Part shown: piece by piece, positions 30,191-50,760 of the stretch
Layout: each line of letters starts with the position of its first letter
Position numbering within the stretch: the stretch's first letter is position 1
Source of the DNA: Candidatus Aminicenantes bacterium
Lineage (GTDB): Archaea > Nanobdellota > Nanobdellia > Woesearchaeales > JAFCCF01
Length of the DNA: 64,000 bases
Direction: 5' to 3'
Assembly: GCA_017610325.1 (NCBI GenBank)
Contig: JAFCCF010000001.1
Location: 12,950 to 76,949, forward strand
The notes under the pieces: model-generated
Told to the model about the DNA's origin: nothing
The model's database searches: none
The model's input: the letters and a program-made list of their open reading frames with translations, nothing else
Position numbers and translations under genes: made by a program

Positions 30191-30193
30191 TTT

Positions 30194-31270
30194 CTAAATC
30201 TTTGACGGCAGCTTTACAAGCCAGTTTTTTATAAAATAAAGGTCCTGCACAATATTTTTTGCTTTGTTACCAAAACTGGTTGGCCAAAGAACCGGATATA
30301 TAAGTGATTTTATCTTATAATTCCAACTTACTTTGAAAAGATTTTCCTTCATAGAATCAAGCAAAATCCTCTTTAGCAAAGAACCCTTTATACCCAACTT
30401 AGTGCGGAAGTCTTCTGGCAAACTACATCTAAAAAACGTTTCGCAGAGCACAAGGCAATAATACACTAATTGGTTTGTGTTTGTCTTTGTGCATTTTTCA
30501 TAGAGTGCTGACCAATTAATTTTTTGTTTTCTTAACATCTCATTAAGTTCATAAAGTGTTCTTAAACCACCTGCAAAAGAATGCCCCATCAGATGTATGC
30601 ACGAATAAATTATTTGGTCTTCCAACTTTAGGATATCTATCTTGTCATCCTTAATCTCAATCGTTTTGGTTTTAAAGGAGGCTTTGAACCCATGGTGACC
30701 AAAGAAAAGCCTATCATGGACCTCAACCAATATTGTCCAGTTTCCAATCTTTTTTCTGCAATCAAAGTGATGGTAATGGGGGTGCCTGTCAACTGAGTAG
30801 CCTTTCCTAATCATTTCTGTTCTTATCTTTTTGGAGTCATTTGAATCAATAAGCAGGTCAATGTCTTGCATTGGCCTTTTAAGCAGATTGATTTTTCTGT
30901 AATGGTTCACGGAGTAACCTTTCAAAAGCACAAACTTGACAGAATGCTTCCAAAACAGTTTACAGAGTTCAGTAAACTCCATTAGCATTAGCATACTGTT
31001 CGCAATAGAATAATCCTTATACCTGACAAGCCTCTGCTCAAACCTCTTAGGCACAGCCAGTCTTAAAGTCCTTACACAATCAAGAGCATCTATATGTAGC
31101 AGATTATTTGAGATAATTTCCCATATAATATCCCACTTAATGGAAACAATAAGCGCCTTAACCCTTTTTCTATCACGATTCAGCAAAGCCAGCATAAATT
31201 CCTCCTCTTTGCCCAGCGAAGGGTTTCTTGATTTCCTGGTTTTGGTCATGGGCTTTTTCACCATGTGCAT
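30194..31270 (-). CDS. uncharacterised nucleotidyltransferase (NTP_transf_5 / PF14907-like)
   Basis: 358 aa. Segment VLLKGYSVNHYRKINLLKRPMQDIDLLIDSND...IRKGY fits the family pattern LKG...R...DiDlLv.... Confidence 0.55.
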   Translation of the reverse strand: MHMVKKPMTKTRKSRNPSLGKEEEFMLALLNRDRKRVKALIVSIKWDIIWEIISNNLLHIDALDCVRTLRLAVPKRFEQRLVRYKDYSIANSMLMLMEFTELCKLFWKHSVKFVLLKGYSVNHYRKINLLKRPMQDIDLLIDSNDSKKIRTEMIRKGYSVDRHPHYHHFDCRKKIGNWTILVEVHDRLFFGHHGFKASFKTKTIEIKDDKIDILKLEDQIIYSCIHLMGHSFAGGLRTLYELNEMLRKQKINWSALYEKCTKTNTNQLVYYCLVLCETFFRCSLPEDFRTKLGIKGSLLKRILLDSMKENLFKVSWNYKIKSLIYPVLWPTSFGNKAKNIVQDLYFIKNWLVKLPSKI

Positions 31271-31314
31271 AACGAGACAAAAAGTATATATAAAACCTTG
31301 TTTAATTTAAACAT

Positions 31315-32883
31315 ATGTTCTCCAAGAATTTATCACAAAGAAAGATACTCCTTCTAATAATCCTCTTTGCTTTGCTAGTAAGGTTACCCTGGTTGTATAC
31401 AACCATAGAAAGGGATGAAGCAACCAATGCGCTCACTGCCTGGAGGGTTTTGCATGGCGAAACTCTCTACAAGGATATCCACGCCGACAAACCACCCCTA
31501 CTGTATGTTTTTTACCTTGTGCCCATCTCAATATTCGGCAATTCAATTATCCCAATAAGGCTTCTTAACAACCTCCTCTTTGTTTTTTCCATCATCATCT
31601 TTTTCAGGATTGCTGAAAACATCTTTAAGAGAAGGGTCGCAATATACTCAACTATTCTCTTTGCATTTGCCATGAACATCCCTGTATTTGAGGGGCAGTT
31701 GGCAATGTCAGAGTCTTTGCTGACCCTGTTTGTTTTGTTGTCTGTTTATTCTTATTATAAATTTGCAAAAGAACACAAACCAGTTAACTTATTCCTCTCG
31801 TCTTTGTTTATGACACTTTCTGTTCTCACAAAGCATCAGGCAATTATCCTTTGGTTTATGCTGCTAACATTGTTTCTTATCCACACCAAATCTGCAGGTT
31901 TTATCAAGAAAAATCGCCCACTTTTTCTCAAGAGCTTACTATATCTCATATTACCAATGGGTTTTGTGACATTTGCTACACTTATCCTGATGGTCTTCAT
32001 GGAGTTTGATGGAATCTTGATTATAATTAAGCTTAGTGCAATCAGGGCAATATCTACTGTAACTGATTTATTCAAAGCTATTTTTGGTCTTAGACAGATT
32101 GGAGAAGCAAAGGCAGTGGTAACATTGAGCATGTGGCGCTCGTACAAGTATGTCCCATTCGGTTACGTGCTGCTTTATCTTTTGGAGGGTGCTTTCCTCT
32201 TCTTTTTATCCTTGGTTGGTATGTTTAAATTATTCAAGGAAAAGAGCAGACCTAAATGCAACTTTAGCAAGCAACTTGTTATTGTCTGGTTCTCTTTTTC
32301 ACTAATGGTTTCCTTAGTTCCAAAAGCCTTCGGCCATTTTTTTATCTTCCTGATACCACCCGCATCGCTTCTAGCAGGTTTCGCGTTATATAACATTATA
32401 AAGAAAAAGTCTGTTCGCAACAACCTGTTTTTGGTCTTGGTTTTAGTTTTATTAATGGTGTCTCTATTTTTTCAGGTTAAACATTACCCAGACTTTCACA
32501 TCACCTATGGCCCATACAGGATGGGGTTCAGTGATTTTGGTAGTTATTCTGACCAGCTGGCGTTCGGCAAATTCATAAAAGAAACCAAATCAAAGGATGA
32601 TTCCATCATTGTCTTTGGGTGGGCGCCGGTAATCTACTGGCTAAGTGAAACCAAACCAATAACTCAAAGCAGCTTTAATTTCAATGCAGACGACCTATTT
32701 CAGGCAATTCAAGAAAAACAACCGCGATACATAATAATCATGCCATACTCAGATATTGACCACCTATCTATCTTTCCTGTCAGGGGGCTAACTACAGAGA
32801 AAAAAAAGGAGTTCGAGGAATATCTAGAGCATTACATACTTTCAAACGTTGAAGGTATTAGGGTATATTCAAAGAAAGAATAA
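31315..32883 (+). CDS. GT-C fold glycosyltransferase (PMT_2/ArnT-like, GT39/GT83-type), polytopic membrane protein
   Basis: 522 aa, more than 10 TM helices. N-terminal DEATNALTA...KPPLLYV loop typical of PMT_2. No WWDYG motif, so it is not AglB. Confidence 0.6.
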   Translation: MFSKNLSQRKILLLIILFALLVRLPWLYTTIERDEATNALTAWRVLHGETLYKDIHADKPPLLYVFYLVPISIFGNSIIPIRLLNNLLFVFSIIIFFRIAENIFKRRVAIYSTILFAFAMNIPVFEGQLAMSESLLTLFVLLSVYSYYKFAKEHKPVNLFLSSLFMTLSVLTKHQAIILWFMLLTLFLIHTKSAGFIKKNRPLFLKSLLYLILPMGFVTFATLILMVFMEFDGILIIIKLSAIRAISTVTDLFKAIFGLRQIGEAKAVVTLSMWRSYKYVPFGYVLLYLLEGAFLFFLSLVGMFKLFKEKSRPKCNFSKQLVIVWFSFSLMVSLVPKAFGHFFIFLIPPASLLAGFALYNIIKKKSVRNNLFLVLVLVLLMVSLFFQVKHYPDFHITYGPYRMGFSDFGSYSDQLAFGKFIKETKSKDDSIIVFGWAPVIYWLSETKPITQSSFNFNADDLFQAIQEKQPRYIIIMPYSDIDHLSIFPVRGLTTEKKKEFEEYLEHYILSNVEGIRVYSKKE

Positions 32884-32889
32884 AGCGTC

Positions 32890-33945
32890 CTACCCCAACA
32901 GTTCTTTTAGAATCTTACTGTTATTTTCATCAATACTGTTGTATGCAAATCTCATGCTGACAACGGAATAATTATAACAAGAATTGAACTCACCCATTCC
33001 GCCCTCCATGGATTTTATATCTCCAGCGTATGCTTTTGCTTTGTCAGCATCCCCTTGTTTATAACTGTCCAGGGCCAGTTGTATTGTAGTATCACAAAAT
33101 ACCCTTCCATCTTGGGCTTCATTTATTATATCATGGTAAATCAAAACTGCTGTATCCTGCTCTCCCTGTAATTTATAAAGTGCAGCTAATATATTTTTCA
33201 ACATCAACAAACTATCGCCCTGGAATGTTGAAGGGTATTTTGGACTCTGCATTATGTCTTTTAAATACTTAGTAGCATTTTTAATGTCAAGACCCCATTG
33301 ACTAGCCATCAGGGGATAAATGTGCAGGTGTAGCTCTTGTAGGTCTGGTCTCTGAGAAGCCACCCTGAGACCATCAATATTTTTTGTCTTACTAAAAAAA
33401 TCAACCAACAGTATAGGTAAAATCCTTGCCTCTTTGGTGTCTAGATTAGAGGTTTCTACCGATTCTGCCCTCTCAATTATGGCTACTTCTTCTTCTGGGG
33501 TAGGTGATTTAGAAAGATTTGCCCCTACTAATTCCAGGTCATAGACAATTCGTGTTAGATAGAAAAAATTTGCAAGATTCACTCTATCGTTCCAAGTGAA
33601 ATTTAATAGGGTTGATATGTTATAGTACTCTTGACTTTTTTTAAAGACGTTACTAAGCATTTTAAGGTCTTCATCTTCACTTAGTGTATCTTTAATATCG
33701 TCGTAACCACCCGTTAAAAAGAGGTCACTCTGGTATAAGAAATCTAGGTATTCGTCAGCGAATGCCTCCACCTCTGCATTGGATGGGGTAGCTGTAGTTT
33801 GGGGAGTAGTTGTTGTCGAGGTTGTATCACCTGGTTCTGTTTTCCAAGGTGCGAACAATAAGACAACCACCCCTATACATGCAATTAGAATTATAACGAG
33901 TAGAACTGATTTTTTCACCTTCTTTTTTTCTTTTGACTTAGCCAA
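32890..33945 (-). CDS. membrane-anchored extracellular protein with Thr-rich linker; hypothetical
   Basis: 351 aa. N-terminal Lys-rich stretch plus a TM anchor, a TTSTTTTPQTTATP linker, then a globular helical domain. Confidence 0.45.
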   Translation of the reverse strand: MAKSKEKKKVKKSVLLVIILIACIGVVVLLFAPWKTEPGDTTSTTTTPQTTATPSNAEVEAFADEYLDFLYQSDLFLTGGYDDIKDTLSEDEDLKMLSNVFKKSQEYYNISTLLNFTWNDRVNLANFFYLTRIVYDLELVGANLSKSPTPEEEVAIIERAESVETSNLDTKEARILPILLVDFFSKTKNIDGLRVASQRPDLQELHLHIYPLMASQWGLDIKNATKYLKDIMQSPKYPSTFQGDSLLMLKNILAALYKLQGEQDTAVLIYHDIINEAQDGRVFCDTTIQLALDSYKQGDADKAKAYAGDIKSMEGGMGEFNSCYNYSVVSMRFAYNSIDENNSKILKELLG

Positions 33946-34034
33946 CTTACCCCAACAATATTATTATTATTTTGTTCCTTAAATATTTATCGGAAAACTA
34001 AAACTATTTAAATAAAGTTAATTCCTAATCCAGC

Positions 34035-34862
34035 ATGCAAGAAGATGCTCATGTCTCTCTGGAGCTGTTAGGCATAGTGTTTAAGATACACATCAAGAAT
34101 GAAGATTATCACAGAATCATTTCAGAGCAATACAAAAATTTTTTAACAAAAAGAAGAGAAGATTATTTTCTGAGCGTAGATTTTGCAAAAACATCGCAAA
34201 AAGAAAAGGATGCATGCATTAAGATTGATAAGGTGGGGGATTCTTTTGTCATTGGAAACTCATTTTTCAGGGGCACATTCTATCCGGGACGGAAAAAATC
34301 ACAGGTAACGCTTTTTAGGACCCCGCTTAAGCAGATATATGCGCCAGGAGTTTTATCTGATTTTTTGGCAACATGTTATTCCATACTTTTACTTGATAAA
34401 GGATACTTCATCTTACACAGCTCAGGCTTGGTAAAAGATAGAAAAGGGTACATTTTTTGCGGTCAAAGTGGTGCTGGCAAAACAACAATCGCAGAGAAGA
34501 GCGGGGCAGTTGTGCTAAATGATGACTTTGTCTTTGTCAAGGCAAGCAACGGGAAATGGAATGTGTACGGCACGCCTTTTTCAGCCACATTTCCTGGAGT
34601 AAATAAGGCCCATAAACTAGATAAAATCTTCTTAATCAAACATGCCAAAACCAATTACACGCGTAGGCTTAAGAAGATTAATGCAATAGGTCCATTGCTT
34701 TCACATATGGTCTTAGTTGGTAGGATGATGGAGGGAAATTATCTTGACCACAATCGAAAGATATTTAACCTTCTTGTGGATATTGTAAAATCTGTCCCGG
34801 TGTACTGGCTGGGTTTCACATCAGATTGCTCGTTTTTGGGTGAACTGGATGAATTTAAATAA
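34035..34862 (+). CDS. HPr kinase C-terminal domain-like P-loop protein (putative peptide/substrate kinase)
   Basis: 275 aa. LHSSGLVKDRKGYIFCGQSGAGKTTIAEKSGAVVLNDDFVFV matches the HprK_C core (P-loop followed by DD). Confidence 0.6.
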   Translation: MQEDAHVSLELLGIVFKIHIKNEDYHRIISEQYKNFLTKRREDYFLSVDFAKTSQKEKDACIKIDKVGDSFVIGNSFFRGTFYPGRKKSQVTLFRTPLKQIYAPGVLSDFLATCYSILLLDKGYFILHSSGLVKDRKGYIFCGQSGAGKTTIAEKSGAVVLNDDFVFVKASNGKWNVYGTPFSATFPGVNKAHKLDKIFLIKHAKTNYTRRLKKINAIGPLLSHMVLVGRMMEGNYLDHNRKIFNLLVDIVKSVPVYWLGFTSDCSFLGELDEFK

Positions 34863-35163
34863 CTATGTTAAGATCAAATCTCATGTAGAGTGGAAACAGG
34901 TAGATAAAGAAATCATAATATTTGATACAAAAAATACCTCATTCTACAAACCAAATGAGACCGGGGCCCTTATCTGGTGGAGCCTGGTAAAGGGGAACAA
35001 CCTCCTGGCTGCTTTGAAATCAGTGCAGAATTCCTGCGAAGCAGATTCAGCTGAATTGCAGAAGGATGTAATTGATTTTCTAAATGAACTCGTTGCAAAG
35101 GATTTGGTTCAGCCAATCGCCAAAAAACCCTCAAGTGTTAAGGAACAGATTAATTTGAGTTAG
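34840..35163 (+). CDS. PqqD-family protein (RiPP recognition element-like peptide chaperone)
   Basis: 107 aa. Pattern KQVDKEIIIFDTKNTSFYKPNETGALIW...DVIDFLNELVAKDLV typical of PqqD/RRE. Overlaps the HprK-like gene by 23 nt. Confidence 0.55.
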   Translation: MNWMNLNNYVKIKSHVEWKQVDKEIIIFDTKNTSFYKPNETGALIWWSLVKGNNLLAALKSVQNSCEADSAELQKDVIDFLNELVAKDLVQPIAKKPSSVKEQINLS

Positions 35164-36317
35164 GGTGGCAGGTATTTCTTAAGAAAACTAAATAGTATCT
35201 TTCTATCTTCTCCCTCTACCTGTGATATTATCCATTTGCAGCAATCAAAGTAAATTAGCTTCATCATACAGCCTTCCATGGTGTGCTTGAAAGAGTTACC
35301 CGTTTCAACGAAATTCCTGTAAACACAGGGACACTTGATGCAATAGTCCCGCATCCTACATTTCTTGCACTCGTTGTTTGTTAGGGAATATTCTTCAACG
35401 CACTGAGCATACATCTTGAATTTTACTGAATCAAATTTGCTAATTTTTCCAAAATCATTTTTGTCTAGATACAGGAACTGTCCACAACCATACACCTTTC
35501 CTTCTGGTGAAACAGTGAAAGTCTGGCCAGCTGCACTGCAGCATGAGTGCGGAACAACCTTCCCAAGTACCTCCCGGTCATAAATAGTTTTCAGGATATT
35601 GCAATATTCTATAAGATGGGGCACTGCTTTGTTCTTTTTAATATATTCAATGAACCACTCAGCAATTTTTAATCTATTATTCCTCAATCTTACTTTATTT
35701 TTTCTTTTGATTAAATTGATATCCTCCATTACAATAATATCATTTGGTTGTAGACTAGTTATGAAGTCAAGGTTTTTCTTAACATCCCTATCAGAAAACA
35801 AATATACATACTTGATTCCCAGGTGATTGGATATTTTATTTAGTCTCTTGATGTTTTTAACTACTACCTCCCAGGTTGGCTTACCCTGTTTTGTTCTTCT
35901 CCTAGAATCATGATTCTCTTTGACTCCATCCAAGCTGACGTCAACCATCAAATTGTGTTTTTTAATCAAATCCTGAATCCTTTTATTTAGGATAGTGAGG
36001 TTTGACGTGAATCTTATTTTAAGTTCTTTGTTTAACTGCTTTGCTTTTCTGTAGGCATATTCGCTAACAACATCAATAAGTTCAGGTTCCAGAAACGGTT
36101 CACCACCTATAAAATCCAATGAAAGCTTTTTTTCCTTGCTCTCAAACAACAGGTCAACAGCCATTTTGGCATCATCCAAAGAAATCCTCCTGTCGTTCTT
36201 TTCACCAACTAAACAATAAGAACAATTTAGATTACAATTCCTATTAAGGAAAATATCAACTCTTCTGTGACGCATTTTAACATCATATATGTCAGAAAAT
36301 AACTTTCTTGCCCCCAT
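35160..36317 (-). CDS. radical SAM / SPASM-domain protein (peptide- or cofactor-modifying type)
   Basis: 385 aa. CNLNCSYC radical SAM motif and a C-terminal twin Cys-rich auxiliary-cluster region (CCSAAGQ...GCGQF...CKKCRMRDYCIKCPC). Confidence 0.8.
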   Translation of the reverse strand: MGARKLFSDIYDVKMRHRRVDIFLNRNCNLNCSYCLVGEKNDRRISLDDAKMAVDLLFESKEKKLSLDFIGGEPFLEPELIDVVSEYAYRKAKQLNKELKIRFTSNLTILNKRIQDLIKKHNLMVDVSLDGVKENHDSRRRTKQGKPTWEVVVKNIKRLNKISNHLGIKYVYLFSDRDVKKNLDFITSLQPNDIIVMEDINLIKRKNKVRLRNNRLKIAEWFIEYIKKNKAVPHLIEYCNILKTIYDREVLGKVVPHSCCSAAGQTFTVSPEGKVYGCGQFLYLDKNDFGKISKFDSVKFKMYAQCVEEYSLTNNECKKCRMRDYCIKCPCVYRNFVETGNSFKHTMEGCMMKLIYFDCCKWIISQVEGEDRKILFSFLKKYLPP

Positions 36318-36443
36318 CTTAACAGGGTGTTAAAGCAGGACCAGTAACACAGGTTATCGCACCGAAGTGAATTTTCTCTTTGATACAAATTAACTTTGGC
36401 TTAACATACTCCTTCTTTTTTTTATGCATAGTTAATAAATATA

Positions 36444-36986
36444 ATGACAAGATATATAAATCTTTTTGTTTTTAAGATGTCCATGAATAAGGATATATCT
36501 AGTATGTTAAAACAGTTTGTTAGGGAGAAAAAACTACCTATTAAAATATCTGGCGAGAGCATGCAGCCACTGATAAGGTCTGGTGAAAAGGTTATAATAG
36601 TTAGTGCTAATGCCCTTAAACCAGGGGATATAATCTGTGCCAAGGGCTCCTGCGGAATAATGGTGCATAGGATAATAAGGCGCTTAAAAAATCAGCGTTT
36701 CCTGGTTAAAGGAGATAATAATTTTATAGGGGACCCTATACTAAGCAACAAAGACGTAATTGGGAAGGTGATTGCAATTAGGTCTGGCAAGATAAGGATA
36801 AACACAATGCCGTGGCGCTTTGCTAACAGAATGATTGCGTTGTTTTCTTACCTACAACTGGCCGTTTATGCTGGTTTTATGGCTAAAAGTAGCTCAGGAG
36901 ACAAGTTTTCTAAGCAGTTCAAAAACGCAGTTGTTATGATTTCAAACCCTTTCTTGTTTATTGTCCACATTCTTCACAAACAATGA
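36444..36986 (+). CDS. S24/S26-family serine peptidase-like protein (LexA/signal-peptidase fold)
   Basis: 180 aa. SGESMQPLIRSGEKVII is the GxSMxP catalytic-Ser motif with a downstream Lys (IIRRLKNQRFLVKGDNN). Confidence 0.5.
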   Translation: MTRYINLFVFKMSMNKDISSMLKQFVREKKLPIKISGESMQPLIRSGEKVIIVSANALKPGDIICAKGSCGIMVHRIIRRLKNQRFLVKGDNNFIGDPILSNKDVIGKVIAIRSGKIRINTMPWRFANRMIALFSYLQLAVYAGFMAKSSSGDKFSKQFKNAVVMISNPFLFIVHILHKQ

Positions 36987-38536
36987 AAAATAAAATACTG
37001 CTTGTGTATACCCCAAGGCCTTTTAGGGATTATTCAGATAAGGATGATTTCTATGAAGTTCCTCTTGGACTTCTGTCTATTGCATCAACCTTAAAAGGCA
37101 ACGGGTTTGACATAGAAATAATTGATGGAAACTTGGATAAAAATTATCAGGAAAAGGTGGGGCAAGCCAGCCAGGATGCGCTTTTTGTTGGGCTCAGTGT
37201 GATGACCACTCAAATAAAGGAAGCACTGGAGGTTTCAAAGCTTGTTAGAAGGGTTAACAGCAATACCCCAATTGTTTGGGGCGGCGTCCATCCATCCCTT
37301 GTTCCAATTCAAACCTGTGAAAACCCTTATGTGGATATTGTAGTATATGGCCAGGGAGAGATGACCACACTTGATTTGGCAAAAAAACTACAGAGCAAAG
37401 AACAACTTTCCAATGTACAGGGCATATACTATAAGAAAAATAACAAAGTTTTCAGGAATCAGGTAAGACAACCAACTGAGCTGGATGATATCCCTCCACT
37501 AAACCTGGGGTTAATTGATTTGCAGGACTATCTGAAAATAAATTACACCCTATGGAAAAACTCACTAAGGTTTTCAAGGCACAGTTTGAGGAAAGGGGAT
37601 GAGGTTATAAATAGGTTCCCACTATATACTGGGAGGGGGTGTCCGTATAATTGCGCATTCTGTACTATCCCTATAGTGTATGGCCCTAAAGGTGATTATG
37701 GGAAAAAGGTGTACATGAAAAAATCTGCTAAGAAAATCCTGGACGAGATGGAACATCTGATTAAAGAGAAAAACATACAACTTATTCTCTTCCAGGATGA
37801 GTTGTTTTTTAATGACAGGAAAACAATAGAAGATTTTCTGGATGAGCTGGAGGCAAGGGAGCTGAAGATTAAGTGGACAGTACTAGTGAGGGCAAGTTTC
37901 TTTACCAACTGCTATAAACCAGGCAATCTGATAGAACGAATCAGGAAAAATGGGTGCATTGCTCTGCTTATGGGAGCAGAATCAGGTTCAAATAAAACCC
38001 TTAGAGCTATGAAAAAAGACCTTACCAGAGAGCAACTGCTTACAACAACCAAGTTACTTGCGAAGCACAAAACCTATTTCTCGTATTCTTTTATTGTTGG
38101 GTTTCCTGGAGAAAATAAGAAAGATTTGCTAGCGACTTTAGATATTATGAAAGAAATGAAAAAAATTGCAGGGAGATATGTTGATGTATGCTTGCCGCAT
38201 ATATTCATGCTGTTTCCAAGAAGCGATTTGTGGAGCATTTGTGAAAAGTATGGCTACAAAGAACCCGGTTCTCTCCAGGAATGGGCCGGGCGTGCCATAG
38301 ATGATACCCTCAGCACAGATTTTCGGAAACTACCATGGATACCAAAATCTAACTATTCTTTAATAAGATTCCTCATGCTGGATGGTGCAAGCGCAATTCC
38401 AAATGGGAAATTATTAAAATGGATATACAACCAGATTTACCAGGTTAGAAGAAAGACTAGGTATTTTGGATTCCCTATTGAGATATTTGCGTGGAAGTAC
38501 TACGGAAAACTGAAGTTGAGACTTTTTGGCCATTGA
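36983..38536 (+). CDS. B12-binding domain radical SAM protein, paralogue group A (second copy)
   Basis: 517 aa. Collinear with 25968-27536 (same N-terminus KILLVYTP.., GRGCPYNCAFCTIP, C-terminal RKLPW...). Overlaps the peptidase gene by 4 nt. Confidence 0.8.
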   Translation: MKNKILLVYTPRPFRDYSDKDDFYEVPLGLLSIASTLKGNGFDIEIIDGNLDKNYQEKVGQASQDALFVGLSVMTTQIKEALEVSKLVRRVNSNTPIVWGGVHPSLVPIQTCENPYVDIVVYGQGEMTTLDLAKKLQSKEQLSNVQGIYYKKNNKVFRNQVRQPTELDDIPPLNLGLIDLQDYLKINYTLWKNSLRFSRHSLRKGDEVINRFPLYTGRGCPYNCAFCTIPIVYGPKGDYGKKVYMKKSAKKILDEMEHLIKEKNIQLILFQDELFFNDRKTIEDFLDELEARELKIKWTVLVRASFFTNCYKPGNLIERIRKNGCIALLMGAESGSNKTLRAMKKDLTREQLLTTTKLLAKHKTYFSYSFIVGFPGENKKDLLATLDIMKEMKKIAGRYVDVCLPHIFMLFPRSDLWSICEKYGYKEPGSLQEWAGRAIDDTLSTDFRKLPWIPKSNYSLIRFLMLDGASAIPNGKLLKWIYNQIYQVRRKTRYFGFPIEIFAWKYYGKLKLRLFGH

Positions 38537-38553
38537 TTTTGGTTTCTAGCGAG

Positions 38554-39978
38554 TCAAATAACCATCTGCCTAATGGCCCTGAGCGTGTCGTAAGGCCTCT
38601 TCATGTATATATGCTGGATCTTGTCCTTGAATGACAGCTGGGAGAACATGTACCTTGTAACCTGCCTCTTTTTTCTGGTAACATATCTCCTTGCGAACCT
38701 TTCTTGCCTTTTGTTAAGCTTCCACAAACTCACCTTTGCGTACTGCTGCATAACATTCTTTTGTAAGTCAATGTGTTTACTGTTTAATCCATAAAGAACA
38801 CCCTTTTTCACAAGCTCAGCGAACAGTTTGGTGCTAGGCATGGGCACTAGGTTATTTATGTTTACTATCTTTAGCTGATTATCTTCTATCTGTTTTATGT
38901 TGTACAACACGTCCTCATAGCTCATGCCAGGATAATTAAAAATTATTGAGTATGCAGCAGGGATGCCTGCGTTTTCAATCATTTTGTTTTTTCTCTTGAA
39001 TTCTTCGATTGAGAAGGTCTTGCCAATCGCTTTCTGAATATTCTGTGAGAATGATTCAAGCCCCATCCCAACAAATACACAATTGCTTTCTTTCAACAGC
39101 TTCAGGTTCTTCTCATTTATGTATTTTAGCTTGGTCATGATACCTAAACCCAATCTCTTGTTGAGCCCTTTCTTATTGAAAAGGTCAAGAAACTCCCTTA
39201 CCTTGGGGTGCGACAAGATGAAACAAGAATCAGTGAAGTAAACGCATTTGATAAACGGGTATTTTGAAATAATTCCCTCAATCTCTTTGATAACCTTCTT
39301 TGGTGCCCTAGCCTTATATACTCCTTTGGACTGACCCTCTACACAGAAGCTGCAGCCACCTGTACAACCTAAAGAAAGAGTCATTGTTACTGTTGGAATC
39401 CTCTTGTATACAAGAGACACACTCCGAGAATGGAACTTCATATTGAAGCTGTCTCTGTCAGGCTTCTCAATCTCATCAATCCCAAAATTATAATTGGGCA
39501 CTCTTTTTGTCTTGATAATTTCACCGCTCCTTCTGAAAACAATGTTTGGTATCTTATCGAGTTTCTCTTTGTTAAGTATCTGTGATAATACTAATTCACC
39601 CTCACCAAGTATTAGGATATCAATATCTTTCAATCCTTCAAGCAACTTCCCCCCAACAGAGGTTGCGTATATCCCAAAAAGTATTATCCTGCATGAGGGT
39701 GCTTCTTCTTTTATAATTCTTGCATACTTCACAAACTGTTCCAACTCCCCAAGAAACACTTCAAATGCAGCGTAATCTGGTTTTTCCTTAATAATGAAGT
39801 TTTTAAAAACCCCCAGGCACCACCTTAAACTCATCTTTTCATACCTGAAGTGATATGTTTCATCAAACAGAATCGGTTTGTAACCAGTATATTTTTTTGT
39901 GTTGCTGATTAGTGAAGCTAATTTCATTGGAAAGAGTTTTATGTTCCCTGGATCAAGATTCACAAAAAGTGCCTTCTT
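38554..39978 (-). CDS. B12-binding domain radical SAM protein, paralogue group B
   Basis: CxxxCxxC motif GCTGGCSFC. The likely start is MKKALFVNL at 39978, by alignment with the paralogue at 40050-41477; the ORF tool extends it to 40023. Confidence 0.75.
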   Translation of the reverse strand, partial: KKALFVNLDPGNIKLFPMKLASLISNTKKYTGYKPILFDETYHFRYEKMSLRWCLGVFKNFIIKEKPDYAAFEVFLGELEQFVKYARIIKEEAPSCRIILFGIYATSVGGKLLEGLKDIDILILGEGELVLSQILNKEKLDKIPNIVFRRSGEIIKTKRVPNYNFGIDEIEKPDRDSFNMKFHSRSVSLVYKRIPTVTMTLSLGCTGGCSFCVEGQSKGVYKARAPKKVIKEIEGIISKYPFIKCVYFTDSCFILSHPKVREFLDLFNKKGLNKRLGLGIMTKLKYINEKNLKLLKESNCVFVGMGLESFSQNIQKAIGKTFSIEEFKRKNKMIENAGIPAAYSIIFNYPGMSYEDVLYNIKQIEDNQLKIVNINNLVPMPSTKLFAELVKKGVLYGLNSKHIDLQKNVMQQYAKVSLWKLNKRQERFARRYVTRKKRQVTRYMFSQLSFKDKIQHIYMKRPYDTLRAIRQMVI

Positions 39979-40049
39979 CATGTATTTAAGAAAAGCACAG
40001 ATAATATATATTCTTATCGGCAACCACCAGAAAACCCAATAAATTACTT

Positions 40050-41477
40050 TTAAATATTTTTTGCAAATGACTTGGCCATAAGAACAGGGTTAAACCTAGT
40101 TTTAAGATAAACATATTTTAATTTCTGTTTTGGTGTGAGTCGGAAAAACCAGTACCAGAACCTGTACTTTGTCTTCTTTTTAATGTATTTTATAGTATCT
40201 TCTTCCTGTTTTCTGGTGAGGTTCCAGAATCTTTTTTTCTGGAAATCATTGATGAAATCAGCGTGCCAGTTTATCTTCTCATAATCTAAGGAAGGCAAGA
40301 TTTTATTACTCACAAGTTCTTTGAATATTCTCGTTCCAGGGATAGGATTAAGATACACAATACCAACATTCTTTAATTTGTTTTCCTCTATTGTTTTTAT
40401 ATTATATTTTACATCTGCATAGTCCATGCCAGGGTAATTAAATATTAAAGAGTAAGCAACAAACATCCCTGACTTTTTTAAGATTATATTTTTTTTCTCA
40501 AAATCTTTTAATGAGAATATTTTACCTATGCTTTTCTGAATTTTTAGAGAAAAGGACTCAATCCCTATTGAAACAAAGGAACATCTGCTTTTTTTTAACA
40601 GTCCAACTGTTTCTTCATCTATGTAATCTACCCTTGTCTGGATTCCAAAAGTTAGCTTCTTATGAAGCCCCAGCTTATTATATGATCTTAGAAATTCTTT
40701 TACTTTTGGATGCTTTAAATGGAAACAGTTGTCTGTAAAGTATATATACCTGATATAAGGGTATTTGGTGATTATATCACATACTTCTCTGATTGCATCC
40801 TTTGGGTCTCTTACCCTGAACTCTTCGTAAACCTCTTGAGATACACAAAAAGCACAATCCCCAGTACACCCCCTGGACAAAAGCATGGTTGCTGTGGGGA
40901 GCATCATGTACTGCAACATTGGGCTGTTAGAATAAAGTTCCATATCAAACAACTTTCTGCTTGGCCAAGGGATGTTATCAATATCCAGATTGTAATTTTT
41001 AAGTTCTTTTGTCTGGACAAGCTTATTTTTTTTTCTGAATACTATATTGGGTATATTCTCTAATTTCTTGCCATTTAAAATCTCAGCAATTATCAACTCC
41101 CCTTCTTTCCGAACCAGTATGTCAATCTCTTTTATGTTTTTTATAAGGTTTTTGCCAAGCACAGTGGATTGGACGCCGCCCACAATTATTCTACACAAGG
41201 GAAATTTTGATTTAATTAATCGCGCATATTTAAGGAAATTATTTATCTCATTTTGAGATAAGGTGAATGCAACATAATCTGGTTTTTGTTTGATTATCAA
41301 ATCATCAAAACTCTTGATGCACTGCCCAGGTTTCTTTTTTTCCCGATAGATGTTTTCATCAAAAAGGATTGGTATGTAATGCGTTTTTTTCTTTATTGTG
41401 CTTATAAGATATGCTATGCCAAGTGGGAAGCGTTTGATAATTGGTGTATAGAAATTAACAAAGATAATTTTGTTCAT
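40050..41477 (-). CDS. B12-binding domain radical SAM protein, paralogue group B (second copy)
   Basis: 475 aa. GCTGDCAFC motif, collinear with 38554-39978. Confidence 0.75.
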   Translation of the reverse strand: MNKIIFVNFYTPIIKRFPLGIAYLISTIKKKTHYIPILFDENIYREKKKPGQCIKSFDDLIIKQKPDYVAFTLSQNEINNFLKYARLIKSKFPLCRIIVGGVQSTVLGKNLIKNIKEIDILVRKEGELIIAEILNGKKLENIPNIVFRKKNKLVQTKELKNYNLDIDNIPWPSRKLFDMELYSNSPMLQYMMLPTATMLLSRGCTGDCAFCVSQEVYEEFRVRDPKDAIREVCDIITKYPYIRYIYFTDNCFHLKHPKVKEFLRSYNKLGLHKKLTFGIQTRVDYIDEETVGLLKKSRCSFVSIGIESFSLKIQKSIGKIFSLKDFEKKNIILKKSGMFVAYSLIFNYPGMDYADVKYNIKTIEENKLKNVGIVYLNPIPGTRIFKELVSNKILPSLDYEKINWHADFINDFQKKRFWNLTRKQEEDTIKYIKKKTKYRFWYWFFRLTPKQKLKYVYLKTRFNPVLMAKSFAKNI

Positions 41478-42548: not shown

Positions 42549-43190
42549 ATGATTGATGTTATTTTTCCAAAAAATAATGAGAATGAATTCCTCAATGTAG
42601 CTGAAAAACTTGGCATAAAAAAACTGTGCTTTGCATATCCTCTGAAGGAATTTAATAAAGTTGAGAAAAAGCCAGGTTTTTTCTATGCTGTGGTAGCAGA
42701 GCCAGATGAGTTAAGGAAAATAAAGCATGCTGACCTTGTTATTGTGAAAAATTCGCCAGGAAACAGGGCAGTATTTGAGAGCAAGAAGGCAGATATGTTG
42801 TTTGAGCTTGAGAATAATCCCGTAAATGATTTCATGCACCATCGTAACTCTGGCCTGAACCAGGTGCTGTGCGCTATAGCGCACAAGAACAAAGTGGTTG
42901 TTGCATTTAGTTTTAATTCTATCTTAAACTCAAGAGAGCCTGCCAGGGAATTGGGCAGGATGATGCAGAATGCAATGCTGTGCCGAAAATACAAGGTTGA
43001 TATGGCGGTTGTATCCTTTGCAACAACACCTTATGAAATGAGGGACTTGAATGATTTAGCAGCTTTTGCAAGGCTTATTGGGGTACAGAATGCAAAGCAC
43101 TCACTAAATGTGATACAGCAGAAAATTCTGAGCAACAGGAAAAAACAATCTCCAAACTACATCCAAGAGGGGGTTAAACTCGTTAGATGA
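42549..43190 (+). CDS. rnp3: RNase P protein subunit Rpp30 (Rnp3)
   Basis: 213 aa. Matches the remembered Rpp30 blocks (ADLVIV...NSGLNQVLCAIAHKNKVVVAFSFNSIL...CRKYKVDMAVVSFA). Confidence 0.65.
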   Translation: MIDVIFPKNNENEFLNVAEKLGIKKLCFAYPLKEFNKVEKKPGFFYAVVAEPDELRKIKHADLVIVKNSPGNRAVFESKKADMLFELENNPVNDFMHHRNSGLNQVLCAIAHKNKVVVAFSFNSILNSREPARELGRMMQNAMLCRKYKVDMAVVSFATTPYEMRDLNDLAAFARLIGVQNAKHSLNVIQQKILSNRKKQSPNYIQEGVKLVR

Positions 43191-43981
43191 AAGTTAGCAT
43201 AGGGGTATTTGCTCACAATGAGGGATCCACTATTGGTTTCCTGCTGCAGAGATTAAACGAACAAAAAACAGATACAGTAGACATTGCTGAAATCATTGTG
43301 GTGAGCTCTGGAAGCACTGACAGCACAAATAAGATTGTGCGCAATTTTGCGAGAAAGAACAAAAATATTAATCTGTTTACACAGCAGCAGAGACTGGGTA
43401 AGGCATCTGCAGTGAATATTTTCCTGAAGGCAGCCAAGTCAGACATCTGCCTTTTTGTAAATGCAGACGCACTACCTAAAAAAGATACAATTGAGAAACT
43501 CTGCAACAAATTCTCAGATTCCAAAATTGGCATGACCGGAGGGAGAGTCATACCCTTAACTCATAAAAATTCAATCCTGGGCTTTACCAATCATCTGCTT
43601 TGGCAGCTCCATCATGAAATCTCCTTAAAATATCCTAAGATGGGTGAAATGGTGGCTTTCAGAAAGATATTTACACAGATAGACGAAAAAACTGCAGTGG
43701 ATGAGGCATATATTGAACCGTTGATTCAGAAGCAAACACTAAGTGCTTTCATCAGGCAGAGGAGAAGGATTTATGCAGGTCATAGCTATCTCAGGAAAAC
43801 GGATAATTATTCTGTGTCAACATTCAATAATTTCATGGTTCTAAAGGTTTGGCTGAAGCATCTTGGCAAAGACCCTTGGCATAAGCTTGCAGGAGCTTTG
43901 GTTTTGGAAGGTTGTGCAAGATTCCTTGGGTATTATGATTTCCTCACAAAAAAAGACCATTCTATCTGGAAAAGGATTTAG
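43187..43981 (+). CDS. family 2 glycosyltransferase (GT-A fold)
   Basis: 264 aa. N-terminus VSIGVFAHNE...IIVVSSGSTDST and a DxD-like FVNADA motif. Overlaps the Rpp30 gene by 4 nt. Confidence 0.8.
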   Translation: MKVSIGVFAHNEGSTIGFLLQRLNEQKTDTVDIAEIIVVSSGSTDSTNKIVRNFARKNKNINLFTQQQRLGKASAVNIFLKAAKSDICLFVNADALPKKDTIEKLCNKFSDSKIGMTGGRVIPLTHKNSILGFTNHLLWQLHHEISLKYPKMGEMVAFRKIFTQIDEKTAVDEAYIEPLIQKQTLSAFIRQRRRIYAGHSYLRKTDNYSVSTFNNFMVLKVWLKHLGKDPWHKLAGALVLEGCARFLGYYDFLTKKDHSIWKRI

Positions 43982-44018: not shown

Positions 44019-47000
44019 ATGGTAGTTGTAAGTGTAAAAGAGCTAAAAAGGGGGAAAATCACCAATATCTGGAAATTAAGTGCGTTATTGTTCATTGCTA
44101 TTATAGTATTTCTTATAATGTCATCTCCTCTTTTCAGTCTTCCACCCCCATGCGACTGTGACTATGATGACGAATGTGATCTAGGCCAGGCATGCAACAT
44201 AGGTTCTAACATCTGCTCCTCCTCACCGGATTTCATAGGTTTATGTGGTGATTCAAGCCCCACCACCACCACTACCAGTGGCAGCCCCACCACCACTACC
44301 CTCGTTTGCAATAACGATGGAATCAGAGATGCGAATGAGGCATGCGATGGATATGATTTTGAAATTGCCCCAGGTGTCCAATCTAAGGATTGCAGCGCCT
44401 ATAATAGCAACTGGCACACAGGCACATTAAGGTGTAATAATTGCGTAATCAACACTAACGGGTGCTGCAAAGATACAGATTATGACGCTACCCAGGCTGT
44501 AGAACCAAGCACAAGACCATATGAGCCTGGAACAGTCACAAAGAGAGGTGTTGAATATCTAGATGAGTGCATCATAGGTACTAACAAATTAAAAGAGCAG
44601 AAGTGTAATTCTGGTGGCGGTAATGGTGTGGCTGAAAGAGATTGTCCGCTTGGATGCTACGACGATCCAGCAGGTGGTCCAGATTATTGCATAAGGTGCA
44701 TTGATAATGAAACAATGACTGTTGCCCTAGCCAACTCACCACAAATAACACCGAAAACACTTGCCCCACCAGAAGATAAATATCATAGGGGTAAAGTTTC
44801 ATATGCAACTTTTAAAGATGAAAACGGAGACCCATTTGGTGGTTGGAAGGCAAGATGGGGTGTTGAACTCGAGATTAATGAATCTTGTTTGAACTGTCAT
44901 GTTACAACAGAAGTAAGCTGTAAACCAGGTGTAAACAATCCTAACTTTGACATAACCCAGGATTTCTTTACGTATAAGGGGAGTACTACTATCGGCGATA
45001 TTACTGGAACATTGTGCAGCTCTCTTGGGTGTTCTGGCGGCGCATGCGTTGACATTAGCAACCCTCCATCTTGGGCATTGGGGTACGAAACATGTTTTGA
45101 ACATACATCAAAGCGTTGCGACCCAGCCAATCCTTTAACAAACTGGCAGCGCTGCACATGGTTTGGCGTGAATATAGAAGAAGAGCCAGGTTTAGGCAGG
45201 GAACATGGCGGAACTGGATGGCAGTGCGAGCCGTGTTGGGATTACTGCAGTGCAGGTGTTAATGCGCCCTATGGCTGTGACCAGGGAGGTAGTTTACCAG
45301 AGCCATATTATGGCTGCTGGATGAGTACACACTGTATGAAAGATGCAGGATATTATGAGAACCCAAGCGAGTATGAGTTTTATGATTGCACGCCTGTTAC
45401 TGGCCTGCTCTGGGGTGTTGAGACTGGGCCAGGCAATAGCGGAGACTGCTTCATGGATGCTCCAGTTTGCAGTGAGCATTCAAGTTCCCACCATAATGAT
45501 TCTAAGCTTGGCATATGCCATTTCTGCGACGAAAAAAGTGATGGCTGCACACAAGTATGTGGCGGGCAGTGGAACCAGCATGAATGCTGCGATAGCCATT
45601 TTTATGATGATTGGACCATGGTTAACGGCGAGAGAGTGCCCCTCCCAGATTGTGGGGTTACTGCCAATAATCAAATCTGCGATGCGCCTGATTACAGATA
45701 TCTTGATCCATATTACATGAATACAGAGGAAATGGCCCTGGCAAAGGACGAGCCTGTGCGGGGACAACGATTTCCAGGTTCAGAAGAAGGCAAGCTGTAT
45801 GAAGGTGGCCAGTGGTATGATGGTTCTGCTTCAGAGACTGTGACGCTGCTCTGCGACAATATGGATTATTTATATAATGGCTCATGGCACAAGTCAGAGG
45901 GAACTTGCACAGAGGTCAACACATCTGCTGGCAACATGTATCTTGATTATGAGAACAGCACATGGGGTGTTTGCAATCCTGGCACTTATTTCACCACACT
46001 TAACTGCTCAGCAAATACTTATATCTGTACAATATATGGCTGGGAGCTGCAAGATGCTATTAACTGCTCAAGTGACATAGATACATGCACCAGCTTGTGT
46101 TATGGGGATTGGAGCGAGGACACGTTAGAATGCTGCGAGAGTTATGTATATGATGATACAGACTGCGCAACGCCCAGCATGAGCAGGATTTGCGATGCAA
46201 AGGTGTACCCTGCAGATACCACAGACCATGTCTTGCTTTTTGAGGGCGGGTCCTGGATATCAGACGGCTATCCAAACGAGGTTGTATCTTTAACATGCGA
46301 TAATTGCTCACACCTGTATGACGGCCAGGCCTGGCACAAGTCAAATGGCAGCTGCACTGAGGTTAATACAACCTATAATGTGATGTACCTTGATTATGAT
46401 AATTGTTCATGGCAGGCTTGCACTAATTTATCTTACTGGACTAATATAACCTGTGGCAATGACCAATATTACTGCACAGACCTTGGCTGGCAAAAAAACC
46501 TTGAGCTGAGGTGCACACCAGACAAGAGCACATGTAGCTACTGTACAAGCCCAGACATGTGCCTGCTTAACCCACTTAGCACAAAAAATGAGCAGCCTAA
46601 TCCGCGCTGCATCCCTCTCGGGGAGTATTACAGCGATGATTACTGCCTAAATGGCACCTGGTCAACAAGGACAGCGCTAATAGCTACACAGCTGCTGAAT
46701 TTTGCAAGCACAAAAACAGACTATACATTATTCTGCGACACGCCCCAGTATGCAGCGAATAATTACCAGGACCTGTCATTGTATGGCGACGGTGGAAGCT
46801 GGCTGCAGGGTGTTAATAAGTTATGTACACTTGAATATAAGGAAGGCAGTAATCGCTACAGGGCATTTGGAACATCTATCAATGACCAGCAAAATTACTT
46901 CATCAACACAGACTATGGGTTTCTGCCAGTTATACTGAAATTCAGCAAGGATTACTGCGACAGCGCAGTTCATACAGATAATAAATATTACAGGTGCGGC

Positions 47001-47537
47001 ACAAACAATTCTCTATGGCTGAACAATGACACTTATTCAGTTATATACTCAAGGAAGGGCATAAATCTTGACGGAAGCCTTATCTCAAATGTTTTCATAA
47101 CATTCAGGAGTTTATTATACGACCCAATCACTTCTATAATCAATACTATTAAGGGGCTGTTTACGCCAACAATTGGTGCAAGCAAGATACACGAATTCCT
47201 GGAAGACATACATGACTTTGACCAGGTCTATTACAAGAAGGTAGGCACCAAAGAAGTGAGGGGCTTTGTCAGGCAGGAAGCTGACTGCGCAGCATCTGGC
47301 GTTTGCGGCTGGTATATCTCTGTTAATTATTTTAATTTCAATTATGATGTTTGTAACAAGATTGCGCAATGGGACCTCTATGACGGAATAAGCACTGGAA
47401 ACCCAATGGAACACGAGATACATTGCACTCAGTCTGCTAATAATTATCATGTAGTCAGTCATGTTGATGAAGGCGGCGAGTTCCAGGAAGTTGGGCAAAT
47501 CTGGACAGACCTGACCTCGAAGCTCAGGATTGAGTAG
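44019..47537 (+). CDS. large Cys-rich secreted/surface protein with N-terminal TM anchor, Thr-rich linker and tandem ~180-aa repeats
   Basis: 1172 aa. Hydrophobic N-terminus, a TTTTTSGSPTTTT linker, more than 90 Cys, and many N-x-S/T sequons. Two tandem repeats, each starting CC(D/E)S(H/Y)xYDD, lie at roughly nt 45580-46570. Confidence 0.7.
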   Translation: MVVVSVKELKRGKITNIWKLSALLFIAIIVFLIMSSPLFSLPPPCDCDYDDECDLGQACNIGSNICSSSPDFIGLCGDSSPTTTTTSGSPTTTTLVCNNDGIRDANEACDGYDFEIAPGVQSKDCSAYNSNWHTGTLRCNNCVINTNGCCKDTDYDATQAVEPSTRPYEPGTVTKRGVEYLDECIIGTNKLKEQKCNSGGGNGVAERDCPLGCYDDPAGGPDYCIRCIDNETMTVALANSPQITPKTLAPPEDKYHRGKVSYATFKDENGDPFGGWKARWGVELEINESCLNCHVTTEVSCKPGVNNPNFDITQDFFTYKGSTTIGDITGTLCSSLGCSGGACVDISNPPSWALGYETCFEHTSKRCDPANPLTNWQRCTWFGVNIEEEPGLGREHGGTGWQCEPCWDYCSAGVNAPYGCDQGGSLPEPYYGCWMSTHCMKDAGYYENPSEYEFYDCTPVTGLLWGVETGPGNSGDCFMDAPVCSEHSSSHHNDSKLGICHFCDEKSDGCTQVCGGQWNQHECCDSHFYDDWTMVNGERVPLPDCGVTANNQICDAPDYRYLDPYYMNTEEMALAKDEPVRGQRFPGSEEGKLYEGGQWYDGSASETVTLLCDNMDYLYNGSWHKSEGTCTEVNTSAGNMYLDYENSTWGVCNPGTYFTTLNCSANTYICTIYGWELQDAINCSSDIDTCTSLCYGDWSEDTLECCESYVYDDTDCATPSMSRICDAKVYPADTTDHVLLFEGGSWISDGYPNEVVSLTCDNCSHLYDGQAWHKSNGSCTEVNTTYNVMYLDYDNCSWQACTNLSYWTNITCGNDQYYCTDLGWQKNLELRCTPDKSTCSYCTSPDMCLLNPLSTKNEQPNPRCIPLGEYYSDDYCLNGTWSTRTALIATQLLNFASTKTDYTLFCDTPQYAANNYQDLSLYGDGGSWLQGVNKLCTLEYKEGSNRYRAFGTSINDQQNYFINTDYGFLPVILKFSKDYCDSAVHTDNKYYRCGTNNSLWLNNDTYSVIYSRKGINLDGSLISNVFITFRSLLYDPITSIINTIKGLFTPTIGASKIHEFLEDIHDFDQVYYKKVGTKEVRGFVRQEADCAASGVCGWYISVNYFNFNYDVCNKIAQWDLYDGISTGNPMEHEIHCTQSANNYHVVSHVDEGGEFQEVGQIWTDLTSKLRIE

Positions 47538-47603
47538 ATTTTTCTAAAAAACATTAAATTAATAAGTATCTAATCTAATTTTATTCTAAAAAAGAGGTAG
47601 AGC

Positions 47604-50585: not shown

Positions 50586-50639
50586 AACAAAATTTTTTTC
50601 TGCAAGGAACCCAATATTACTAAATATGTAATAGTATTA

Positions 50640-50760
50640 CTTAACTTAGTCTAATGTGCCTTAGTATCATTTAGTGTGTATTAGTATTCTTTAATATGTG
50701 TTAATATTCCTTAATATTCCTTAATGTGTTTTAATGTGTCTTAATATTCAGTTAGATCTA
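50640..50760. repeat. degenerate tandem short repeats (CTTAATATTC / CTTAATGTGT units) in the 5' intergenic region of the RHH/giant-adhesin genes
   Basis: Direct reading: ...tattctttaatatgtgttaatattccttaatattccttaatgtgttttaatgtgtcttaatattc.... Confidence 0.5.

Follow-up and report, generated by a model that had tools for sequence, protein, structure and literature searches.

Two pairs of B12-type radical SAM enzymes in a peptide and glycosylation gene island of an uncultured archaeon

Results

Two pairs of B12-type radical SAM genes

The DNA analysed here, referred to as the window, is a stretch of 64,000 nucleotides (positions 12,950 to 76,949, forward strand) of contig JAFCCF010000001.1 from assembly GCA_017610325.1, deposited as Candidatus Aminicenantes bacterium and placed by GTDB in the archaeal order Woesearchaeales. 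It contains four genes for radical S-adenosylmethionine (SAM) enzymes with an N-terminal B12-binding-type domain (B12-radical SAM enzymes), which form two pairs, A1 and A2 (group A) and B1 and B2 (group B). More than 83,000 sequences are known for radical SAM enzymes that depend on B12, in over 100 similarity groups, and most of these groups are uncharacterised (PMC12931638). The enzyme class is already known and paralogue arrays within it are ordinary; what is new here is group B, a rare clade that consistently goes together with a conserved candidate precursor peptide, and the hybrid peptide and glycosylation island in which the four genes lie.

All four open reading frames (ORFs) are intact and lie where a preliminary description of this DNA had placed them (Table 1). 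BLASTP bears out the pairing proposed there, A1 and A2 being 46.7% identical over 516 amino acids (aa) and B1 and B2 45.8% identical over 467 aa, as against 21-25% between groups A and B. The CxxxCxxC motif is intact in each protein, in the sequence contexts already described (SRGCPYKCVFCTIP in A1, GRGCPYNCAFCTIP in A2, GCTGGCSFC in B1 and GCTGDCAFC in B2), and all four match the Pfam family Radical_SAM (PF04055) with E-values of 1e-15 to 1e-21. The alignment with A2 begins at an ATG at 25983, which is therefore the probable start of A1; for B1 the family alignment favours a start at 39978 and not the longer TTG at 40023. A tblastn search with the four sequences found no fifth copy in the window.

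Genes are tightly packed from about 24.1 to 41.5 kb, and the GC content of positions 27537-41477 is 37.3%, compared to 41.6% for the rest of the window. The archaeal origin of the DNA is confirmed by genes for PolD, Cdc6, tRNA-intron endonuclease, RNase P p30, Hjc and TFE. The neighbours named previously (a radical SAM/SPASM protein, PqqD and glycosylation genes) were all found by Pfam and NCBIfam. These scans found no cobalamin genes in the 64-kb window, and Rfam found no cobalamin riboswitch, only one tRNA.

Table 1. Features of the island and its surroundings, in positions of the window.
Feature	Position	Strand	Basis and remarks
ArsR-type regulator	24123-24422	+	Pfam/NCBIfam; in a tight block upstream of A1
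Cysteine desulfurase NifS/IscS	24419-25576	+	Pfam/NCBIfam
Fe-S scaffold NifU/IscU	25569-25964	+	Pfam/NCBIfam; directly upstream of A1
A1	25968-27536	+	Group A; B12-binding domain and radical SAM; probable start ATG 25983
Wzx/MurJ-type Polysacc_synt flippase	27537-28970	-	Pfam/NCBIfam
Divergent sixth radical SAM-like protein, 407 aa	28967-30190	-	CDNECYYC at residues 11-18; between flippase and NTP_transf_5
NTP_transf_5 nucleotidyltransferase-fold protein	30194-31270	-	Pfam/NCBIfam
PMT_2 (GT-C, ArnT/PMT-like) polyprenyl-phosphate-sugar-dependent glycosyltransferase	31315-32883	+	Pfam
351-aa protein	32890-33945	-	N-terminal membrane anchor, Thr/Pro-rich TTSTTTTPQTTATPS linker; adjoins PMT_2
HPr-kinase-like P-loop protein	34035-34862	+	Weak HprK_rel_B, HprK_rel_A and ScmC matches
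PqqD-family peptide recognition element	34840-35163	+	41.7 bits, cut-off 23.4; overlaps HPr-kinase-like gene
Radical SAM/SPASM peptide-maturase-like enzyme	35160-36317	-	Best match PapB, below cut-off
Candidate precursor peptide, 36 aa	36319-36429	-	Contains Cys; MHKKKKEYVKPKLICIKEKIHFGAITCVTGPALTPC; stop codon 1 nt before maturase ATG
Archaeal-type signal peptidase I (S24/S26 fold)	36444-36986	+	47.9 bits, cut-off 51.85; overlaps A2 start codon
A2	36983-38536	+	Group A; B12-binding domain and radical SAM
B1	38554-39978	-	Group B; radical SAM; divergent Rossmann-type N-terminal domain
B2	40050-41477	-	Group B; B12-binding domain and radical SAM; lowest GC of the island (32.7%)
GT2 glycosyltransferase	43187-43981	+	Pfam
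Three consecutive giant ORFs (1172, 993 and 3521 aa)	44019-61543	+	Just downstream of the island

A run of nine G residues in A1 (26278-26286), the longest G/C run of the window, encodes the invariant VWGGVHP, which A2 codes with interrupted codons. On a 5-kb contig from another metagenome (L090, positions 352-359), otherwise 99-100% identical to the window, the same run has eight G residues, and A1 is frameshifted into pieces of 119 and 394 aa. Either an error in sequencing or on/off switching of the slipped-strand kind could account for the difference. L090 was also considered as an independent relative that keeps the gene order A1, flippase, radical SAM, NTP_transf_5; it was rejected, being 99-100% identical and from the same population.

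Relation to characterised families

In order to place the four proteins we scored them against curated NCBIfam models, taking the whole-protein cut-offs as membership thresholds. No cut-off was reached. The scores were 95-120 bits for BchE (TIGR02026, cut-off 481), 97-122 bits for HpnJ (TIGR03471, cut-off 577.6), 60-114 bits for the ladderane B12-radical SAM enzyme (TIGR04072, cut-off 360), 50-93 bits for MgmA/QCMT, the glutamine C-methyltransferase of methyl-coenzyme M reductase (TIGR04014, cut-off 360), 70-102 bits for ApyD (NF050148, cut-off 750) and 60-85 bits for the B12-radical SAM C-methyltransferases that mature peptides which are ribosomally synthesised and post-translationally modified (RiPPs; TIGR03975, cut-off 281.85). 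Models for TsrM (TIGR04428), PhpK (TIGR04479), BzaD (TIGR04385) and AprD4 (NF033070) gave lower scores again, at most 114 bits against cut-offs of 360-600. HpnJ was the best curated hidden Markov model for both B1 and B2, and MgmA the best sequence match in the Protein Data Bank (E 1e-10), in the radical SAM core only. Hence no characterised housekeeping family among the models scored claims any of the four, and they do not group with one known enzyme; groups A and B are two unnamed, uncharacterised subfamilies of B12-type radical SAM enzymes.

The N-terminal domain and the likely chemistry

The architecture proposed in the preliminary description, an N-terminal Rossmann-type cobalamin-binding domain followed by a radical SAM core, is borne out by Pfam, profile alignments and structural models. 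The Pfam family B12-binding (PF02310) is matched by A1 (E 1.5e-20, 73.7 bits) and A2 (E 1.5e-18, 67.2 bits) and marginally by B2 (E 4.7e-8, 33.3 bits, cut-off 32.1). AlphaFold models of B2 and A2 have predicted local distance difference test (pLDDT) values of 89.7 and 86.5, and Foldseek aligned the models over their full length with TsrM, MgmA, TokK, OxsB and CysS (E 1e-16 to 1e-22, template modelling (TM) scores 0.6-0.74). The group A profile aligns through the cobalamin-binding domains of OxsB, TsrM and TokK, whereas with AprD4 it aligns to the radical SAM half only. Between groups A and B, homology extends over the complete N-terminal domain (hhalign probability 100%, E 3e-45). The N-terminal domains therefore align to true cobalamin-binding domains, and neither of the two outcomes that the preliminary description had given as refuting it was observed.

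In solved B12-radical SAM enzymes the cobalamin is held base-off with no protein ligand to the cobalt (PMC12931638). An inspection of B12 ligand residues, as suggested earlier, is for this reason not a valid test, and we used the lower-axial column of the alignments instead. N186 of OxsB and R69 of TsrM, which lie below the corrin, align in group A with Met74, a nearly invariant residue; the hhalign column of group B is aromatic in seven of eight members, with Ser in B2. A hydrophobic lower face is associated with radical methylases (PMC12931638), and the observed pattern would fit radical methylation, which is suggestive only.

The four are probably cobalamin-dependent C-methyltransferases. 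The alternative, whatever the substrate, is that the domain works without B12, as in AprD4 and ArsL, or uses it for rearrangement, cyclisation or ring contraction, as in OxsB, HpnJ and BchE. Several observations weigh against methyl transfer and towards this alternative. AprD4, an enzyme without cobalamin, is an equally good structural match (TM 0.71-0.75) and has the highest target-normalised TM-scores (0.74-0.75). Since the models thus resemble this cobalamin-free enzyme no less than they resemble genuine B12 enzymes, we can only infer that the four use cobalamin. B1 has no B12-binding Pfam match at E<0.01, the Ser of B2 at the putative lower-axial position is not hydrophobic, and the best model matches, the top NCBIfam scores, include the non-methylating BchE and HpnJ. 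The family is widespread in the candidate phyla radiation (CPR) and in DPANN lineages, which rarely make cobamides. More generally, AprD4 and ArsL share the fold without cobalamin, and methylases are not distinguishable from non-methylating enzymes by sequence (PMC12931638). On the other hand, the N-terminal domain of group A aligns to true cobalamin-binding domains and not to that of AprD4, the hydrophobic residue in the lower-axial column fits radical methylases, and each functionally characterised group of the sequence similarity network includes C-methyltransferases (PMC12931638). On balance we consider a different chemistry doubtful.

Genomic context of group A

Group A belongs to a very large family. 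A2 had 631 matches among the scored candidates, of which the best besides A1 was only 35% identical; they come from Omnitrophota, Patescibacteria, Chloroflexota, Smithella and unclassified archaea. Scanning species genomes gave at least 472 relatives in very diverse bacteria and in archaea. The archaeal holders are Woesearchaeota, Nanoarchaeota, Aenigmatarchaeota, Iainarchaeum, Bathyarchaeota and methanogens (including Methanobacteriaceae), and CPR bacteria, Chloroflexota, Bacteroidota and Planctomycetota have abundant members of the group.

The preliminary description had stressed the retention of four copies, which was overstated. Of 80 related loci, which average 11.4 kb in length, 27 have two or more B12-radical SAM-like genes, 13 have three or more and one has eight, so four copies are not unusual. 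The eight genes lie in a 15-kb stretch of a Eubacteriales metagenome-assembled genome (L048, 1-15218), the biggest array among the related loci.

We then surveyed the neighbours. Among 130 proteins encoded within two genes of an A-like gene at 35 loci there were 16 radical SAM proteins (6 with a B12 domain, 4 with SPASM), 13 class I methyltransferases, 12 GT1/GT4 and 8 GT2 glycosyltransferases. A second survey, of 67 neighbour proteins at 14 archaeal loci, gave 4 GT4, 4 PMT_2, 3 GT2 and 2 Polysacc_synt flippases; PMT_2 lies near an A-like gene at 4 of these 14 loci and also at L091. Four examples are glycosylation loci with one to three B12-radical SAM genes each: L001 (Omnitrophota) with AsnB, GT4, a formyltransferase and a flippase; L033 (Patescibacteria) with GT2, a radical SAM/SPASM protein, a sugar epimerase and three B12-radical SAM genes; L049 (Iainarchaeum) with a methyltransferase, PMT_2, GT2, a B12-radical SAM gene and one more radical SAM gene; and L091 (an archaeon) with three B12-radical SAM genes, PMT_2, GT2 and methyltransferases. 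Two fusions were also found, a methyltransferase-GT1-B12-radical SAM protein (P0073) and a B12-radical SAM-polysaccharide pyruvyl transferase (P0085).

The same surveys bear on a lead of the preliminary description, that of archaeal lipid-ring synthases. Here the four enzymes would modify membrane lipids or polyprenols by ring formation, methylation or cross-linking, like GrsA/GrsB and Gmm, and the radical SAM/SPASM enzyme of the island would be Gms-like. GrsA/B and Gmm are indeed B12-binding radical SAM proteins and Gms a SPASM/Twitch radical SAM protein, and they are clustered in Thermococcus guaymasensis (PMC11214058); in addition some A-like matches are found in Bathyarchaeota and Methanobacteriaceae. 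However, no lipid-pathway family is among the top 25 neighbour families of either survey (197 proteins in total), which leaves the lead with no contextual support. The abundance of group A in the bacterial lineages named above, together with the SPASM enzyme of the window, which resembles peptide maturases and adjoins PqqD and the candidate precursor, also argues against it, and we regard lipid modification as highly improbable.

Two similarities with CPR bacteria cross the domain boundary. On a Saccharibacteria contig (L047, 8554-10165) IscS (47% identical) and NifU (44%) adjoin an A-like gene. The Patescibacteria GT2 of L033 (2947-3849) is 45% identical to the GT2 of the window and lies in an operon with the radical SAM/SPASM, sugar epimerase and three B12-radical SAM genes.

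Group B and a candidate precursor peptide

The group B clade is rare. Only seven proteins among 5.8 billion were found at 42-57% identity, the next being at most 30% identical. When 1.84 billion representatives (50% identity clusters) were searched exhaustively with HMMER and the group B profile, only two full-length clusters scored above 760 bits, with the following matches at about 330 bits or less, and a metagenome scan with this profile gave only two distant matches. The next-best profile matches are giant proteins of 1000-2700 aa with two to four fused B12-radical SAM modules (P0162-P0165 and others).

Two of the relatives (L004 and L005) lie in nucleotide-sugar loci with GT4, AsnB and WbqC, and a third (L006) on a 7.5-kb contig with three B12-radical SAM genes and a CapK-like ligase. 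In the archaeal loci L003 and L007 a GT2 gene comes right after the B gene, with an S-layer gene then following in L003. L003 shares with the window the HPr-kinase-like protein, an S24-type peptidase homologous to the signal peptidase I, and NTP_transf_5; L007 shares PqqD and the PapB-like radical SAM/SPASM enzyme. The signal peptidase of the window could be merely the housekeeping enzyme.

The maturase-like enzyme of the window scored 170 bits against the PapB-family ranthipeptide maturase model (NF047865, cut-off 340), with the Cys-containing ORF 1 nt upstream of it and PqqD adjacent. Its nearest named homologues are CcpM, CXXX-repeat and SCIFF maturases, and in Pfam and NCBIfam it matched no model beyond Radical_SAM, Fer4_12 and peptide-maturase models. 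A TTTATATA box (36453-36460) lies about 24 nt upstream of the ATG of the candidate precursor, which is weak evidence because the region is AT-rich.

Each of the three archaeal loci with group B encodes a homologous precursor-like peptide, next to genes for glycosyltransferases and peptide maturases. The L007 peptide (MKKKKYESPEITEFTAEVEGAGTCVECFDTDWN) adjoins PqqD and the L003 peptide (MMADGKRKLRYIKPIVTEFTRQITVARASSSLPAPCQF) lies between a YcaO gene and the HPr-kinase-like gene. All three have a basic N-terminus and a motif Y-x-(K/S)-P-x-(I/L/V)-x-x-(F/I) followed by 19-20 residues with Cys. The motif is similar to the leader of PqqA-type peptides, which PqqD domains bind. A composite pattern, written after the peptides had been seen, found these three and one spurious match in 2.2 million six-frame residues from 92 sequences. 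None of the 80 group A loci of the genome scan has such a peptide, and no NCBIfam model matches the candidate precursors. A small ORF of 56 aa between the B12-radical SAM genes of L006 was rejected as a precursor, since it does not resemble the family. In L003 (1-1428) the precursor homologue (382-498) comes after the YcaO gene and not after a radical SAM/SPASM gene, which suggests that members of one peptide family go with different primary maturases.

This conserved peptide raises the possibility that the 36-aa precursor is itself the substrate and is methylated, at unactivated carbons of its side chains or backbone, by at least some of the four enzymes (B1, B2 and A2 being the most plausible), the sugar genes belonging to a separate pathway. 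PoyB/PoyC methylate polytheonamide and BotRMT1-3 bottromycin in this manner. The precursor, maturase and PqqD genes abut A2, B1 and B2, precursor homologues occur in each archaeal group B locus and nowhere else among the 92 sequences, and the closest solved structure by sequence, MgmA, is a protein C-methyltransferase. The presence of several B12-radical SAM methyltransferases in one RiPP cluster is also established (PMC12931638). In contrast, the group B homologues of L004 and L005 lie in pure sugar loci without such a peptide, glycosyltransferases dominate the neighbours of group A, and PqqD is outside the 25 most frequent families of the 130-protein survey. Furthermore, the scores with the RiPP model TIGR03975 (60-85 bits against 282) lie below those with BchE and HpnJ, and fusions to glycosyltransferases are known while none to a recognition element was seen. 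Direct peptide tailoring by the four enzymes thus appears rather unlikely to us.

Discussion

A tentative model for the island

Our tentative preference is for a reading in which the four enzymes are tailoring enzymes of an AT-richer accessory island (about 25.9-41.5 kb) and act most likely on sugar residues of a glycoconjugate, which we hold to be quite possible, if short of probable. We prefer it because it covers the most loci: sugar enzymes are the only feature that almost every A and B context has in common, except for L006 (CapK-like ligase only). The peptide module is confined to the archaeal group B loci. The product of the island is probably a modified, glycosylated peptide or a secreted or surface glycoconjugate. 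In the window archaeon and its relatives, a RiPP-like peptide may carry the tailored carbohydrate.

In such a model the island would combine three modules whose products may come together: a peptide module (the 36-aa precursor, the PapB-like radical SAM/SPASM enzyme, PqqD, the HPr-kinase-like protein and the signal-peptidase-type protease), a glycosylation and export module (NTP_transf_5, the PMT_2 GT-C transferase, the Wzx-type flippase and the nearby GT2) and an Fe-S supply module (IscS/IscU). SAM would be cleaved reductively at the [4Fe-4S] cluster bound by CxxxCxxC, the 5'-deoxyadenosyl radical would take a hydrogen from an unactivated carbon, and methyl-cobalamin in the N-terminal domain would then give the methyl group. 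The sugar might be bound to a lipid or a nucleotide, or might already sit on the peptide or a surface protein, and the two paralogue pairs may provide several distinct or iterative modifications.

Besides the doubts about the chemistry given above, other points weigh against this reading. Each of the three archaeal group B loci has a precursor, which would suit direct methylation of the peptide just as well; DPANN-like genomes are compact, so that the closeness of genes by itself says little about a common function; and no nucleotide-sugar-modifying enzyme (epimerase, dehydratase or aminotransferase) was found in the window island. Taken as a whole, the interpretation of the preliminary description is partly supported.

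A more specific proposal, which we think unlikely in its full extent, is that a small family of uncultured archaea makes a glycocin-like or phosphoglycosylated RiPP. Its precursor of about 35 aa (K-rich N-terminus, Y-x-(K/S)-P-x-(I/L/V) leader motif, Cys tail) would be cross-linked by the radical SAM/SPASM enzyme (by YcaO in one relative) and glycosylated, and its sugar or side chains would be C-methylated by group B and the glycan-type group A on a cobamide scavenged from a host or community. Radical SAM and YcaO RiPP clusters have already been predicted by genome mining across archaea, including DPANN, and the only archaeal RiPPs characterised so far are haloarchaeal lanthipeptides (PMC12144867).

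For the large group A family, the glycosylation context and the sugar-enzyme fusions suggest a function, and for the rare archaeal group B the precursor conserved in three of three loci is a concrete candidate substrate. If true, our reading would add radical C-methylation to the chemistry of archaeal surface or secreted glycoconjugates, and it would imply cobamide dependence in an apparently reduced archaeon.

Comparison with known systems

The solved class I B12-radical SAM enzymes (TsrM 6WTE, MgmA/QCMT 9CCB, TokK 7KDX, OxsB 5UL4 and CysS 9N1B) likewise have a five-stranded Rossmann-type domain followed by a CxxxCxxC barrel, and the group A loop GLSVMTTQ aligns with GLSVNFGQ in OxsB and GVTVRNTD in TsrM. 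However, identities are only 13-21%, the C-terminal regions are different and their substrates are not encoded near the four genes. The C-methyltransferases GenK, GenD1 and MoeK5 and the sugar-rearranging HpnJ are class B, carbohydrate-directed enzymes from glycosyltransferase-rich clusters; unlike those clusters, the present loci have the look of envelope-glycan loci rather than of antibiotic or hopanoid pathways.

Several paralogous B12-radical SAM genes beside a precursor and other maturases are also found in the clusters of polytheonamide (PoyB/PoyC) and bottromycin (BotRMT1-3). The window differs in its core maturase, a PapB-like radical SAM/SPASM enzyme with PqqD, and in its flippase, GT-C and NTP_transf_5 genes. 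The tailoring sets of the lasso peptides paeninodin (PadeK) and pseudomycoidin (PsmK/PsmN) resemble it in combining an HPr-kinase-like protein, PqqD and a nucleotidyltransferase-fold protein with a small peptide. PsmN itself we take to be a member of PF14907. However, the window has no lasso cyclase or B2 protease, its peptide ends in Cys and not Ser, and its HPr-kinase-like protein is matched very weakly, with 25 bits where the cut-off is 200. Haft's SynChlorMet (Scm) cassette presumably has a similar composition, with HPr-kinase-like, PqqD, nucleotidyltransferase and radical SAM/SPASM proteins around a small peptide. PsmN, from a family of uncharacterised nucleotidyltransferases, is needed to add hexose to a lasso peptide that has been phosphorylated (PMC6993621), which is a precedent for a sugar on a RiPP-like peptide. 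Literature searches on PF14907 and on B12-radical SAM enzymes in polysaccharide synthesis found nothing directly relevant.

The archaeal glycerol dialkyl glycerol tetraether (GDGT) cluster (GrsA/B, Gmm and Gms) is alike by gene content, with B12-radical SAM proteins and a SPASM-type radical SAM protein, but the neighbours in the window are glycosylation and peptide genes and not lipid genes.

Other features of the island and its surroundings

The sixth radical SAM-like protein (28967-30190) matched Radical_SAM below threshold (E 2.6e-4) and was assigned to no family. The membrane-anchored protein of 351 aa, which has no Pfam or NCBIfam match, lies beside the PMT_2 enzyme and could be an O-glycosylation acceptor. 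Whether the GT2 glycosyltransferase belongs to the system is uncertain, because the housekeeping genes TtuA/NcsA and RNase P p30 separate it from B2. The three giant ORFs are probably surface proteins; the largest (3521 aa) has Ig-like (Big_13, Big_3_3) and TSP3 repeats, and those of 1172 and 993 aa have no Pfam match. Just upstream of the ArsR-IscS-IscU-A1 block lie a tRNA-Pro(CGG) gene (23018-23090) and a gene for a stand-alone Cas4/PD-(D/E)XK nuclease (23231-24070).

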